A DNA stretch of 52,606 nt from Amoebidium appalachense. Its lineage: Eukaryota > Protista > Ichthyosporea. The stretch lies in assembly GCA_963693365.1 (NCBI GenBank), contig CAVNZM010000019.1:230121-282726 (forward strand). The letters are read 5' to 3'. The translations under genes and the position numbers were made by a program. Positions 1 through 52,606 of this stretch are shown in pieces. The stretch's first letter is position 1; each line of letters opens with the position of its first letter. The notes beneath the pieces are model-generated. The model did no database searches. It was not told where the DNA came from and saw nothing but the letters and a program-made list of their open reading frames with translations.

Positions 1-1068
1 GATCTCCAGCACATGGACGTCCTGCAGCGCCCAGTTGTGGGCGGGATGGAAGCACTCGAACTCGCGGGCGCCGGCCACAAGCAGCCGGTTGCCTGGGTAG
101 TCACTGGGGCCGTCCGCAACGGTGGTGATCTCGATGTCGCGCACCTCCTTGCCGATCTGGACGCTGGTGCACCCGCGCAGCGTGCCGCGGGCCTGTGAGC
201 ACAGCAGCTCGACACGGTGGGCGCGACTGATGGTGTCGAACACCACCATGCCAAAGACGCACACGTGCACATTGCGCATGTTGACGCAGGACTCGATGTT
301 GTGGATGTTGTGGATACCGGGAGCGGAGCCGCCGCTGCCGTAGCCGTACTGGTGGCCGCACATGGAGCGGAAGCGGTAGTCCAGATGCAGTTTCACAAGG
401 CCCGCAGGCACATGCAGCGCCGTGCTGGGGATGGCGTAGATGTTAGAGGGGTTCACACGCGTGCACAGGTGGACGTGCAGATGGGCCAGGTTTTCGAGCG
501 CAGTGAGATCCATGACTACACCAGGTGTGGGCCTGGGAGTGGCAGAGAAGGCAAGGGTCAGACTCGTCAGGTTCTGGATAGCGCGGCCCAGCAAGGCGAA
601 GGGGGCGACAAGGGGGGTGCGGCACTTGAAGGAGTTGACCTCTGCGACCTTGAGGTTGGGAAACAGGTCTGGGTAGATGGGCTCCGTGCTGGTGTAGCGG
701 TGGTTATGGGCAGCCTTTGCATGGTGGTTGGCCAGGTCCCGGTACTCATCAAGAACCATGTGGAGAACGAAGCGCATGGGCGGAAGCTCGGCAAGGCGCT
801 TGTAGTCAGCAGTGGTGGCAAGGACGTGGGTGGCACGGACGCGCGTGGCAAACTCGATTGACTTCGGACCCTTGGACAGGTCGACGCGCATGTGGCTGTT
901 CGGGCGCGCCAGCTCTGCCTCGTGTACGTGGCGAAGCGCTCGGCAGGTGAGCGCAATGCTGCGACGTGAGCGTGCATCCAGGAAGGAGCAGATGTACAGA
1001 AGCAGGTAGTGGTTGCCCAAGACCAGCTGTTGCGCGCTGGGAGAAAGGGTGGACTGATCGGCGCCCAT
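1..1068 (-). CDS. F-box protein, copy A (3' part outside window)
   Basis: Reverse complement of the 27831 and 46143 genes; ATG at 1068 (MGADQSTLSP...); frame open to the window edge. Confidence 0.8.
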   Translation of the reverse strand, partial: MGADQSTLSPSAQQLVLGNHYLLLYICSFLDARSRRSIALTCRALRHVHEAELARPNSHMRVDLSKGPKSIEFATRVRATHVLATTADYKRLAELPPMRFVLHMVLDEYRDLANHHAKAAHNHRYTSTEPIYPDLFPNLKVAEVNSFKCRTPLVAPFALLGRAIQNLTSLTLAFSATPRPTPGVVMDLTALENLAHLHVHLCTRVNPSNIYAIPSTALHVPAGLVKLHLDYRFRSMCGHQYGYGSGGSAPGIHNIHNIESCVNMRNVHVCVFGMVVFDTISRAHRVELLCSQARGTLRGCTSVQIGKEVRDIEITTVADGPSDYPGNRLLVAGAREFECFHPAHNWALQDVHVLEI

Positions 1069-1162
1069 TGTGATGAACGCGCCGTGAGTTCGTTTGGAGA
1101 GTGAAGTTTGAAAGCTGAGCTGTGGTATACCCCTCCCTGAGAGCCGGCCACCAATAGCGCGC

Positions 1163-1248
1163 TGACCAATCAGACGCGTTGACCAATCAGACGTACCGAC
1201 CAATCAGACGTTTGGAATTTTGACCAATCAGCGTGATGACCAATCGGA
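1163..1248. promoter_or_regulatory. Array of five CCAAT boxes (GACCAATCAG) upstream of the F-box gene
   Basis: Repeated GACCAATCAGACG units; mirrored as CTGATTGGTC at ~27658-27742 and ~45964-46048. Confidence 0.6.
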
Positions 1249-1816
1249 TAGAGGGTCTTGTATTCCTGTGGAAGATGACCGAAGGGTCTGTAGCCAAGGC
1301 ATGCAGCGTCTGATTGGCTCAGTTACAGCATTTGTGTTATTTTAAAATTGACTGGTTATGATACAGTATTGATGTGATGTGAACGTCGTGATTTACAACA
1401 CTCCAAGCACGTCAATTTGAAAACAAAACCGAAATATATAAAACCGTTTAATAAGAACATTTTTGCCATTGTTTTCCTATTGAACAGGCTGTTGTTTTAG
1501 TTTCTACTCAGAGTTCGGAAATGTGACTCGCGGTCAGGGTTACAACCGAATCGAGATCCCTGAAACAAAAACCCTATATACAATAGGATGTCTGTTTTGT
1601 TTAAATCAATTTGACCGAGTTCCTCTCGTTGTGTGGCTTTCACAACAGTTGATTATTCTATAGATTATTCATTTCGTTTCATTTCAGTTGCAAATCTACT
1701 GCGCCGAAGGACAATTGCGCACCCTGGCAAAGCCACTGGGACCAGTCTAATTGGCTATAGGACCCATATAACCCCATCACGGCTTCGGATGCTGCCAGTC
1801 TTGCAAACATGCAGCT

Positions 1817-2866
1817 ATGAACCACAAGCCAAACGTTAACCTGTGGCGCCTGCGCGACAAGCTCTTCCAAGCGACAACACCGGCCAGCGAGGCAGCGCTC
1901 ATGGGCGTTCCCGTCTTCGGCGAATTCGACATGCACTCGCCCCCAGCCAACATGCACTCGTTCCCCGCCAACACAAAACCTGCACGCGCAATACCGCCCA
2001 AAGACGACTGCGTGCATGCACAGCCCTCCCAACCCCCTTTTGCAGTTGTGCACGCACCGCCCCTGTGCAGCAAGGACGTGCGAGTGTACCCGTTGCAGAC
2101 AACATGGCCACCACCACCGGGCAAGATTCCGCTACGCAGGATTCTCCCGTACAAGACTTCAGGTACTGCGGCCAGCGACGTGGAACAAAAGCAACGGGAT
2201 GTATTTTATTGGAAGGCAGGGGCGAATCCAACTAGACGTGGACGGTACTTACGCAAAAACAAGATGGGGGCCTCCAAAAAACTCACCTCCCCGCGCCTAC
2301 CAGTGGCAGTCAACGCCGAACCCACAGCGCCCTGGCGACCACTCTCTTTTCCGGATTTGGACACGGAAGAGACCACAGAGGCAGCGGATAGGGAGAACGC
2401 AGCAGCGCCCCCAAGCAGCCAGGTGTGCGAAGCAGCAGCGCCCCCAAGCAGCCAGGTGTGCGAAGCAGCAGCGCCCCCAAGCAGCCAGGTGTGCGAAGCA
2501 GCACGCGAGCCGCTCGTGTACGAGGACCACAGTTCCGTCGACGTCGACGACCAGGTGGCCTTCACGGGGCAGATGGTATCCACGAGCAGCCCCCAGTCGG
2601 AGACAACGGGAGAGCAGTGCGAGATCTGGGTGTCTGTCGATCGATCTCCGCACCCCCCATACATCTACTACAACGTGAAGCATGTCATAGTGCAAGTAAC
2701 AAACAAGGGTTCTAAAATACACATCGCATACGAGGAGGCCTCCTCCAACCAGCTGTGGCAACTGCAATTTAAGGACAACAAGAAGCCTTTGCATGTAGTC
2801 ATAGGAGGCAATGGAGAAAACACTGTTGCGGTGAATGAGGTGTGGGTGTGCATTCGACCAGGATAG
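1817..2866 (+). CDS. Hypothetical 349-aa protein with 3 x AAAPPSSQVCE repeat, copy A
   Basis: ATG-started ORF, intact in all three copies; indels between copies are in-frame (one 33-bp unit); AT-rich TATA-like CCCATATAA upstream. Confidence 0.7.
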   Translation: MNHKPNVNLWRLRDKLFQATTPASEAALMGVPVFGEFDMHSPPANMHSFPANTKPARAIPPKDDCVHAQPSQPPFAVVHAPPLCSKDVRVYPLQTTWPPPPGKIPLRRILPYKTSGTAASDVEQKQRDVFYWKAGANPTRRGRYLRKNKMGASKKLTSPRLPVAVNAEPTAPWRPLSFPDLDTEETTEAADRENAAAPPSSQVCEAAAPPSSQVCEAAAPPSSQVCEAAREPLVYEDHSSVDVDDQVAFTGQMVSTSSPQSETTGEQCEIWVSVDRSPHPPYIYYNVKHVIVQVTNKGSKIHIAYEEASSNQLWQLQFKDNKKPLHVVIGGNGENTVAVNEVWVCIRPG

Positions 2867-51254: not shown

Positions 51255-51809
51255 ATTATCTGTTGTTTCTTACCAGTTTATATATACACAATCGAGTGAA
51301 ATGATTAATATTCAAGAATTAACAGAACCGAAAATCGGTGTTTATTGATTTTCCGTATTTGATGTCACAAACTATGCAAATAATGCAAACAGGAATTCCT
51401 GAAATTCTATTTTATTTTGTTCTTTCTGTTGTTTCTCGCCAGTTTATATATAAACAATCGAGTGAAATGCTTAAATTTCAAGAATTAACAGAATCAAAAC
51501 TCGGTGTTTATTGATATCCCGTATTTCATTCCCCTGCAATCCCATGCAGTTCCCATGCAGTGCAGGGGAACTGCAGGGGATAATGATTGGTCGAGAGCGC
51601 ACCCGGTGCGCTCTTAGCCAATGGGATTGGATTATTTTATTTTTTGCAGGGGAACAGGGGATGCAGGGGAACTTTTTTCCATACCGACCCGGAAAAATAA
51701 AGCGATCTGATTGGTCGAGGAGGGCTGTTTGTGATTTTGTGTGCCGGGGCCTAAAGTTCCCATGCATCCCCTGTTCCCATGCAGCTTTTTTTTCTGCCTA
51801 ACTTGTGTA

Positions 51810-52292
51810 ATGGACACGCAGACTCTCCAAAATGTTTACACTTGTAATTGGGAGGGCTGTGGGCGGCCTTTTCATAATATCCATGCTTTCAAACGACACA
51901 CTCTTGTGCACACAGGTGAAAAACCATTCTGCTGTGGGTGGCCTCGGTGCGACAGACGGTTTTCACAAAAATCAACTTTGGAAAATCATTACAGATTACA
52001 CACGGGAGATCATCGCTATGTTTGCGATGTTGCTGGATGTGGCAAGCACTTCAACTACCCAGGAAAGCTGAAGATGCATCGACAAGCCCATGAGAATATT
52101 CGCCCGTTCGCTTGTCCCTGGCCGGAATGCGACGCGTGTTTTGTAGCAAAATGCCACTTGCAGGTCCATCTGCGAGTCCACACCGACGAGCGCCCGTTCC
52201 AGTGTACAACATGCGGCCGTACCTTCCGACAGAGTAGTGGACTCAGGTACCATCAGCTTCATAAACATCAGCCAAATGTTCAAACAGAATAA
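51810..52292 (+). CDS. C2H2 zinc-finger protein, five fingers (~160 aa)
   Basis: Five C-x2/4-C...H-x3-H(/x4) units with TGEKP, TGDHR, ENIRP and TDERP linkers; AATAAA at the stop. Confidence 0.9.
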   Translation: MDTQTLQNVYTCNWEGCGRPFHNIHAFKRHTLVHTGEKPFCCGWPRCDRRFSQKSTLENHYRLHTGDHRYVCDVAGCGKHFNYPGKLKMHRQAHENIRPFACPWPECDACFVAKCHLQVHLRVHTDERPFQCTTCGRTFRQSSGLRYHQLHKHQPNVQTE

Positions 52293-52344
52293 TAAAGCTG
52301 TGCTTGTACTCCGAACATTTTCTTGCCCCTACTTCATCTCAGAC

Positions 52345-52606
52345 ATGCCAATTGTTACGATCAACATACCGGAGTCTATCATACGCGATAGACTTGCTGT
52401 AGCTGAAAATGGAAAGACAGAAGTTTTAACCCCCTATGGACGTATTGATGTCCTATCGGAGACAGAAGTTATCGAGGTGAAGAAAGTGGTGCATTGGAAG
52501 GATGCCATGGGGCAGGTTTTGGCATATCAGCTTTTTTACCCAAACCATTCTCCTCGAGTTCATCTTTTTGGATTCGGTTCCGTGTCCCTCTACCAGACCG
52601 CGTTTG
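52345..52606 (+). CDS. Stand-alone PD-(D/E)XK nuclease-like protein (partial, runs off window; not in ORF track)
   Basis: Manual translation MPIVTINIPESIIRDRLAVAENGKTEVLTPYGRIDVLSETEVIEVKKVVHWKDAMGQVLAYQLFYPNHSPRVHLF, same family as the intron-nested ORFs. Confidence 0.8.
   Translation, partial: MPIVTINIPESIIRDRLAVAENGKTEVLTPYGRIDVLSETEVIEVKKVVHWKDAMGQVLAYQLFYPNHSPRVHLFGFGSVSLYQTAF

Follow-up and report, generated by a model that had tools for sequence, protein, structure and literature searches.

A repeated, virus-like helicase unit in Amoebidium appalachense as a candidate nuclear replicon with no recognisable capsid or polymerase gene

Eukaryotic DNA elements of about the 15-kb size are detected and classified by their capsid, packaging ATPase, polymerase or integrase genes. 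Polinton-like viruses (PLVs) are defined by a morphogenesis module (10.64898/2026.06.19.733378), and the primase-degraded superfamily 3 (SF3) helicases with an HUH domain that are found in mriyaviruses always accompany capsid genes (PMC11253617). Nuclear mirusviruses (Okeanovirales and Styxvirales) are polymerase-less and possess spliceosomal introns that code for nucleases (PMC12768974), and the replication protein of polyomaviruses and papillomaviruses consists of an inactivated HUH domain and an SF3 helicase (PMC6668415). Further definitions were taken from PMC12606086, PMC12344493, 10.1101/2022.12.15.520654, PMC6668415 and PMC3671162. Here, we describe a repeated, virus-like unit in the ichthyosporean Amoebidium appalachense, located in a 52,606-nucleotide stretch of contig CAVNZM010000019.1 (assembly GCA_963693365.1, positions 230,121 to 282,726, forward strand), i.e., the window. 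The unit has no recognisable capsid, packaging ATPase, polymerase or integrase gene, and an element lacking all four would be invisible to current surveys. We give an even chance to the reading that it is a multicopy, nucleus-dwelling and virus-derived replicon or selfish element, which uses host polymerases and has no capsid of its own.

The window contains three mosaic copies (A, B and C) of one ten-gene unit of ~14-15 kb, as found by self-BLAST, before which 5,948 bp of (TG)/(CA) tracts were masked, and by a tblastn search with each gene. In copy B, the gene order is ORF1 (ORF, open reading frame) with a nested antisense nuclease gene, ORF3, a small basic protein, a Cys-rich ORF, a 338-amino-acid (aa) ORF (g340), an F-box-like ORF, a winged-helix ORF and the helicase. 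The tenth gene may be a small membrane ORF with a PPxY motif. Copies A and B are oriented such that their ORF1 ends face each other across a 5-kb spacer, and C follows B head-to-tail, the period being 16,841 bp. The closest pair of copies switches along the unit. A and B are closest in ORF1 (98-99.7% identity) and fall to 73% in the ORF3 promoter, where A and C are closest (97.8%, and 99.9% in the spacer between g340 and the F-box gene), and B and C are closest in ORF3 (98-99%), with 882 nt identical between their helicase genes, hel_B and hel_C. The copies are thus patchworks, as expected from exchange among many copies.

The terminal arrays are built from a unit of ~100 bp (U), which recurs together with (TG)n every 200-233 bp. 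Copy B forms a 16.4-kb block with inverted terminal arrays on both sides, the TG strand pointing outwards, and A has the same array at its matching (ORF1) end. The three 234-bp V units found outermost in the left array of B are diverged U units (score 43 vs. a maximum of 30 in 500 shuffles). The defined inverted ends of B favour a discrete element over a random fragment. No match to U was found in viral contigs. The motif CTACTTACYGAT adjoins (CA)n/(TG)n tracts at the ORF1 ends of copies A and C, at either end of B and at one place in its interior (11374, 20885, 32048, 34803).

Read sets contain the unit as well, the stretch 26700-31900 being present in 20 of the 24 listed runs from four studies. 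Depth was read on 44130-52606 from read-derived contigs; in run X1, the unit contigs are 122-207 deep vs. 16.9 for the adjoining contig of hel2 (a helicase paralogue next to copy C) and the zinc-finger ORF, i.e., an approximately 10-fold step, although contig depth is not copy number. The same step is seen in X3 (about 300-1660 vs. 171-306) and X12 (3900-24000 vs. 990-2300), and run X20, with 13 of 30 bins covered, is too shallow. This suggests that the unit was multiplied separately from hel2. In X1 and X3, contigs pass the break of hel_C into intact helicase sequence, suggesting that most copies of the unit possess an intact helicase. The ratio dN/dS is 0.15-0.55 in seven pairs from five genes (ORF1, ORF3, basic protein, winged helix and helicase) and 0.46 in the Cys-rich pair, and it is saturated in two pairs.

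The helicase matches Pfam DUF5906 with an expect value (E) of 3e-19, and phage primase-helicases of PHROGs match it over the core only. Among solved structures, it is matched only by 6K9C and 6K9E, chains of the NrS-1 helicase that are deposited as 'Primase'. Walker A, Walker B, motif C and the Arg finger are intact in hel_B and hel2, and hel_C is cut at residue ~384 with an altered Arg finger. The only intact cassette helicase within the window is therefore that of B, since A's lies outside and C's is truncated and then followed by the paralogue. Upstream of hel2 (49685-49735), a pyrimidine run, CTAAC and TAG resemble an intron end, and the X1 contig of hel2 carries 1549 other bases upstream; in the context from which it derives, hel2 may be preceded by another exon. 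The winged-helix protein matches Pfam Pox_D5 (E 0.004-0.02) and, in a profile match, the C-terminal winged helix of the helicase family (probability 83, E 9e-6). One X1 contig (depth 13) joins 47598 to 48436, a variant without the winged-helix gene between the F-box and helicase genes. Neither an F-box-to-helicase splice nor an upstream HUH exon of hel_B was found by eye or profile.

A search of 1.84 billion representatives for relatives of the helicase yielded a top tier that consists mostly of 340-520-aa helicases with the N-terminal 185 residues in common. A FastTree phylogeny of 94 of 178 helicase cores grouped 26 rows (SH 98), and an IQ-TREE phylogeny of 36 of the 178 rows supported only a 14-row group (97/93) and an inner 11-row group (96/92; ultrafast bootstrap/Shimodaira-Hasegawa-like approximate likelihood-ratio test). 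The inner group includes the window helicases together with the proteins P0026, P0172 and P0007. P0026 has an extra N-terminal domain matching Viral_Rep, Rep_OBD and Gemini_AL1 clusters at 0.91-0.94 and the papillomavirus E1 DNA-binding domain at 0.89 in the Atlas, where families are carried by 10-39% of cluster members and the thresholds are uncalibrated for protein parts. The N-terminal 140 aa of both P0026 and P0172 match Rep/HUH clusters there at 0.94, and inspection by eye showed HUH motifs I and II, with Trp in place of Tyr in motif III. A literature search of incomplete coverage found no description of a Rep/HUH-like domain fused to an NrS-1-type SF3 helicase. No locus of the group was found in IMG/VR viral contigs with the queries hel_B, A1 and A3, or in metagenome contigs; query A4 returned 46 loci and A5 one prokaryote-bin locus, all at most 33% identical, and none of these carries the N-terminal signature of the group (best E 0.006) or any other cassette gene. 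The helicase lineage, of about 20 proteins, is unclassified, and the searches placed none of its members in IMG/VR.

Both ORF1 and ORF3 contain a predicted phase-0 intron with a GT donor, a CTAAC/CTGAT-like branch signal and a CAG acceptor, the removal of which gives an in-frame join in all three copies. Five of the six spliced models are free of internal stops; the exception is ORF1 of B with three stops, its exon 2 being frame-disrupted in B and open in A and C, and ORF3 is open in all three copies. The spliced ORF1 of C reads YRVVEME^STIGRPGMDHLLT, which brings back the GRP motif of the Bro-like family; exon 2 of ORF3 in A, for its part, has no ATG of its own. Both are independent hints that the predicted introns are real. 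Exon 2 of ORF1 codes for a coiled coil, a domain X and a C-terminus with a basic stretch resembling a nuclear localisation signal (NLS) and a SUMO-interaction-like motif (SIM). Domain X has one homologue among 7997 candidates (P0177), which ends like ORF1 and begins near the predicted acceptor. The predicted fold of exon 2 has a mean pLDDT of 43.7, with no Foldseek match at E 0.001 and VIA matches to the helical bundle 6-105 only; the Atlas gave no usable match for the ORF3 exon 2 protein. At the end of ORF1 (37300-37376 on the + strand; 9085-9160 on the - strand), the basic NLS-like run is followed by VVVIADSDSE, a SUMO-interaction-like motif. An ORF of ~50 aa in predicted intron 2 (approximate coordinates 22799-22951, +; A ~6110-6260, -; C ~40474-40626, +) is open in all three copies and carries a hydrophobic stretch and a PPPPY motif. 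PPxY motifs bind Nedd4-type ligases.

The antisense gene nested in predicted intron 1 is disrupted in B and open in A (10124-10735) and C (35425-36111). Its motifs E..G.ID.L..IEVK..WK are invariant over three window and three cyanobacterial proteins; the label PD-(D/E)XK is a motif reading, and no library named it. A PDB search with the nuclease alignment returned no nuclease, and no match to the gene was found in phages or viral contigs. Its nuclease domain is 44-59% identical to proteins on nine plasmids, eight of them cyanobacterial. In three cyanobacterial plasmid proteins (L048:1183-1785, L049:1261-1812 and L050:1024-1764), the same nuclease domain, 49-53% identical to that of the window, follows N-terminal domains that differ among them, one being Bro-N (E 1.7e-8), and the GGRP-x-Y-L motif of this Bro-N aligns with the N-terminal domain of the window nuclease. 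Between A and C, divergence is alike in intron 1 and exon 2 (70.6% vs. 70.9%), giving no sign of independent intron movement, and the window contains no intron-less allele.

The genes responsible for virus or transposon functions were looked for in all 83 open frames of at least 105 aa from the non-redundant regions and, with PHROGs, in 16 ORFs. No capsid, packaging ATPase, polymerase, primase, Rep, HUH nuclease, integrase or transposase family was recognised in the 83 frames; among the 16 ORFs, PHROGs recognised neither a capsid or packaging ATPase nor a PolB, Rep, integrase or transposase; and NCBIfam gave chance-level matches only. The major capsid protein (MCP) and minor capsid protein had no Pfam or PHROG match, but such capsids are very divergent, and the folds of g340 and ORF1 exon 2 are of low confidence. 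HK97-type MCP, terminase, portal and triplex likewise had no Pfam or PHROG match, no dedicated profiles being used. For an A32-like packaging ATPase, there was no family match in the window frames, and a six-frame scan for [AG]xxxxGK[STN] in frames of at least 30 aa gave one match, in the nuclease ORF; even the variant Walker A of the helicases escapes this pattern, and an ATPase of variant type may escape it as well. An RVE or tyrosine-recombinase integrase, pPolB, and a primase- or polymerase-helicase fusion had no match within the unit, VLTF3 had no match within the window frames, and none of the Nucleocytoviricota hallmarks MCP, PolB, A32, VLTF3 and D5 primase-helicase was found in the 52.6 kb. 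No Rfam families or tRNAs were found in the window.

The promoter signals are of the RNA polymerase II (Pol II) type. In 14 upstream windows, CCAAT occurs 39 times vs. 13.0+-3.4 in 200 shuffles (maximum 23); its density there is 9.3 per kb, and in coding DNA it is 1.1 per kb. TATAWA occurs 7 times vs. 1.0+-1.0 (200 shuffles, maximum 4).

Most of what the earlier note on this stretch had recognised by inspection is borne out by these results, namely the SF3 helicase, its winged-helix partner, the PD-(D/E)XK and Cys-rich genes, the F-box gene at a sub-threshold match, the (still predicted) introns, the TATA and CCAAT boxes and the lack of a recognisable capsid, polymerase, packaging ATPase, integrase or transposase. 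Its three cassette copies are confirmed as such, but only two of them have a helicase in the window, one truncated, with A cut off. Its term 'D5-like' is too loose for an enzyme without a primase domain whose nearest solved structure is that of the NrS-1 helicase; an NrS-1-type SF3 helicase allied to HUH-fused forms is a better description. A Bro-N-like domain is clear in the cyanobacterial nuclease homologue and weak in the window itself (Pfam E 0.31), and an AntA/MSV199-like domain found no Pfam match.

Table 1. Coordinates of the features of the window (positions from its first letter)
Feature	Position	Strand	Remarks
Copy A	1-11374	-	inverted relative to B and C; window edge cuts F-box gene; helicase end outside window
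Array at ORF1 end of A	11375-13130	+	(TG)n with 7 U copies and one decayed copy
249-aa ORF between A and B	13680-14429	-	weak BAG-domain match below cut-off
About three ~775-bp repeats	14465-16500	.	hold 13-bp tandem array, TATA and CCAAT boxes
Left array of B	16501-17953	-	3 V units outermost, then U (3 cores and a fused partial); (CA)n strand
Copy B	17953-32048	+	self-BLAST
ORF1 (copy B)	18346-20281	+	exon 1 18346-18645, Bro/AntA-like DNA-binding; predicted intron 18646-19264; exon 2
Nested antisense gene, predicted intron 1 (B)	18587-19202	-	Bro/AntA-like domain and PD-(D/E)XK-type nuclease
ORF3	21754-23685	+	N-terminus disordered; Bro-N-like segment; intron predicted at 22522-22962, containing (CA)n; paralogue of domain X
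Basic, repeat-containing protein, ~103 aa	23663-23974	-	C-terminal cysteines; dN/dS 0.30, A vs. B
Cys-rich ORF, 392 aa	24446-25624	+	no match in Pfam, PHROGs, NCBIfam
338-aa ORF (g340)	26075-27091	-	Pro-rich N-terminus; C-terminal domain without family match
F-box-like protein	27831-29339	+	488 aa in C; N-terminus E 0.003, under curated cut-off
Winged-helix protein, 210 aa	29320-29952	-	nuclease-like domain without ExK motif, and winged helix homologous to helicase C-terminus
SF3 helicase (hel_B), 503 aa	30049-31560	+	primase-less, NrS-1/DUF5906 type; motifs intact
Right array of B	32048-32914	+	4 U copies with (TG)n, inverted vs. left array
AT-rich spacer between B and C	33126-34633	.	two 716-bp units, each a long palindrome with arms of about 137-165 bp
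Copy C	34803-49619	+	diverged ORF1 and nuclease paralogues; helicase truncated
hel2, helicase paralogue	49719-51254	+	57% identical; motifs intact; lower read-contig depth
C2H2 zinc-finger ORF	51810-52292	+	single-exon; Pfam
Stand-alone nuclease ORF	52345-52606	+	PD-(D/E)XK-type; runs off window

Among the other features (Table 1), the F-box protein has no homologue among 7998 candidates, and the C-terminus of g340 folds with a pLDDT of 32.8. The 249-aa ORF between A and B is unique and is driven by the thrice-repeated, promoter-like ~775-bp unit, with a 13-mer in up to 19 copies (13680-16500). The palindromes of the AT-rich spacer are far from chance (z = -30 vs. 20 shuffles), and the spacer is a candidate origin or an unrelated insert resembling a miniature inverted-repeat transposable element. 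A 314-bp tandem repeat with (CA)n lies in the ORF1-ORF3 gap of A (8095-8943) and C (37654-38635), not in B. From copy C up to the window edge follow hel2, the C2H2 zinc-finger ORF and another nuclease ORF. Transitions at CpG are 1.5-2.1 times those at other C/G sites in all four copy pairs, a ratio that is inflated by the site definition and from which no claim of methylation is drawn.

What is observed directly is anatomical, i.e., a repeated unit with its gene set, the inverted arrays of B, mosaicism, intact helicase motifs and promoter-motif enrichment, and from this anatomy we infer replication, episomes and a route of integration. An element of about 15-17 kb would exist in many recombining copies, transcribed by host Pol II and spliced by the host spliceosome in the nucleus. 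The winged-helix and Bro-like proteins would probably load the primase-less SF3 helicase onto the terminal arrays or the AT-rich palindrome, and the helicase would then open the DNA for host primase and polymerases. Papillomavirus E1/E2 is the model for such helicase loading. The F-box, SIM-like and PPxY-bearing proteins may bend host ubiquitin and SUMO control, and copies would enter and spread in chromosomes via recombination at (TG)n or the terminal arrays rather than by an integrase, possibly assisted by the intron-borne nuclease. If the unit is self-replicating, it would represent a nuclear plasmid-like or transposon-like class, parallel to the papillomavirus E1 strategy with an unrelated helicase of the phage NrS-1 type.

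Several observations weigh against this reading of the unit as a replicon. The survey is confined to the 52.6-kb window, and virus-like genes continue past C to its edge. In copy C, the left end is without the array and the right end is fused to hel2, and no target-site duplication was identified at the copies in the window. ORF1 and the nuclease gene in B, the Cys-rich gene in A and the helicase gene in C are disrupted, by decay or assembly error, and dN/dS is 0.24-1.89 in five near-identical F-box and g340 pairs with few changes. The Cys-rich, 338-aa, 249-aa and domain X proteins belong to no family and could hide a divergent structural protein. An HUH domain in the window reached a best E of only 0.84 with a two-sequence profile and an hhalign probability below 0.2 in all nine protein groups; with no such origin-binding domain, the route of the helicase to an origin is unexplained. 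As for the helicase phylogeny, which the earlier note had proposed as a check, the 11-row group with P0026 and P0172 is well supported, but the wider 21-row primase-less group, which formed one clade in the FastTree phylogeny (SH 98), appears in only 3% of 200 IQ-TREE bootstrap trees. In addition, the HUH-fused P0172 also occurs as a shorter call, P0027, and some of the 'primase-less' relatives may accordingly be incompletely called genes. The reading of the earlier note is thus supported in part: a repeated, virus-like unit with Pol II-style signals and inverted ends on B is there, but its autonomy is conjectural. Host Pol II signals, introns and polymerase loss also occur in nuclear mirusviruses (PMC12768974), and polymerase loss in mriyaviruses (PMC11253617).

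The strongest competitor, which we regard as a real possibility without favouring it, is that the unit is a terminal-repeat-like or early-gene piece of a larger nuclear endogenous virus (mirusvirus-like or nucleocytovirus-like), passively amplified by host recombination at microsatellites, with the hallmark genes outside the window or lost. The genes beyond C and the disrupted copies agree with this, as does the presence of two related helicases, P0006 and P0007, on a single contig of 183,011 bp labelled Daphnia sinensis (locus tags 003790 and 003824), the size of which fits a large virus. This contig is possibly a virus or a co-sequenced protist; our literature search, incomplete in coverage, found no description of it or of the unit. 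Amoebidium is an epibiont of water fleas. Moreover, polymerase-less, intron-rich mirusviruses are known whose spliceosomal introns bear nucleases, 15 of these being of the PD-(D/E)XK type (PMC12768974), and the endogenous giant-virus inserts of Amoebidium are without full core gene sets (PMC11244446). However, copy B is closed on both sides by inverted arrays, the unit is ~10-fold deeper than hel2 in X1, whose hel2 contig has other upstream sequence, and no member of the clade was found in IMG/VR with three queries. Furthermore, DUF5906, PF19263, Bro-N and PF03288 have no occurrence in ten supplementary files of PMC12768974.

We consider it unlikely that the unit is a helper-dependent satellite, for which a related, complete virus would provide packaging or mobilisation in trans. 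It does have a small capsid-less gene set with a helicase, like the transpovirons with their 6-8 genes (PMC3671162), and the HUH-fused relatives could provide initiation in trans, but a nuclear way of life is suggested by its introns and Pol II motifs, transpovirons rely on mimivirus hosts and have a helicase of SF1 (PMC3671162), and no helper is seen. Less probable still is a domesticated host gene cluster or a subtelomeric segmental duplication. Introns, microsatellites, promoter motifs and dN/dS below 1 are what such a cluster would have, whereas the genes are dense and mostly single-exon as in mobile elements, the nuclease is closest to cyanobacterial plasmid proteins (44-59%, nine records), and the F-box protein and domain X have no and one database relative, respectively, unlike conserved host genes. 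We give hardly any credence to an assembly artefact in which one locus was inflated to three, since the copies are 1-30% apart in a patchwork with different paralogues and independent read sets show many variants together with the depth step, in spite of the long microsatellites, the frameshifts at homopolymers and the 882 nt identical between hel_B and hel_C. Even if the unit belongs to a large virus, it marks an unclassified helicase lineage.

Returning to the reading of the unit as a replicon, a tentative and rather doubtful extension would make it an undescribed class: capsid-less nuclear DNA replicons of ~16 kb with telomere-like (TG)n arrays, spliced genes and host polymerases, existing as episomes and chromosomal arrays, with an NrS-1-type SF3 helicase lineage that swapped its primase for a papillomavirus-like, Tyr-less HUH domain for origin binding or dropped it, and with the first nuclease-bearing spliceosomal intron outside mirusviruses. 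Within its own ends, the unit falls outside each known group or cannot be assigned to it, and its independence from a larger virus is conjectural. None of its host Pol II signals, introns and polymerase loss is unique to it, all being known traits.

In comparison with PLVs and Maverick-Polintons, the unit shares the 15-20-kb size, inverted ends, many endogenous copies and an SF3 helicase, which occurs in some of them (10.64898/2026.06.19.733378). Inverted repeats at a size of 15-25 kb, by which Polintons are recognised, are present in B (16.4 kb) and not in C; the Polinton MCP, minor capsid protein, A32 ATPase, RVE or tyrosine-recombinase integrase and polymerase/primase fusion are unrecognised here, and the ends are tandem (TG)n arrays (10.64898/2026.06.19.733378). 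Transpovirons are likewise small capsid-less DNA elements with a helicase, but of SF1, with about 6-8 genes, a tie to mimiviruses and no introns described in the part of the source used, whereas the window has SF3 (PMC3671162). Helitrons and Replitrons use a Rep HUH transposase, with SF1 in Helitrons, unlike the SF3 helicase without a Rep family match found here (10.1101/2022.12.15.520654). The giant repeats of Amoebidium are also dense, intron-poor blocks of virus-like genes in tandem clusters of up to 50 kb (PMC11244446). However, the giant endogenous viral elements, adintoviruses and Plavaka-associated repeats of this genus carry hallmarks of nucleocytoplasmic large DNA viruses or adintoviruses, or tyrosine recombinases and a Plavaka transposase, none of which was recognised here; none of the three giant-repeat types matches the unit, and the word helicase is absent from the text of that source, figure panels excluded (PMC11244446).

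Further likenesses exist with nuclear viruses. Mriyaviruses have an SF3 helicase with a lost or replaced primase, a PD-(D/E)XK nuclease, no DNA polymerase and probable nuclear replication, like the unit, but they differ in size (35-45 kb) and in carrying an active HUH nuclease, MCP, packaging ATPase and VLTF3, none of which was recognised in the window (PMC11253617). As in polyomaviruses and papillomaviruses, P0026 and P0172 appear to be fusions of a Tyr-less HUH-like domain with an SF3 helicase, which implies host-polymerase replication; in contrast to these viruses, the helicase core is of the NrS-1/DUF5906 type, the window helicase has no HUH-like domain and no capsid is recognised (PMC6668415). 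Mirusviruses are large viruses defined by a virion module, whereas the unit is ~15 kb with no recognisable capsid or terminase; both have spliceosomal-type introns (predicted in the unit), no recognised polymerase and a PD-(D/E)XK-type nuclease gene in an intron, here in a Bro-like regulatory gene with the nuclease antisense, which differs from mirusvirus introns (PMC12768974). Like shintrons, i.e., spliceosomal homing introns, predicted intron 1 holds a nuclease ORF in all three copies between a spliceosomal donor and acceptor, and, even as part of a large virus, it would provide a case in a cultured genome in which homing is testable, such introns having so far come from environmental mirusvirus genomes.

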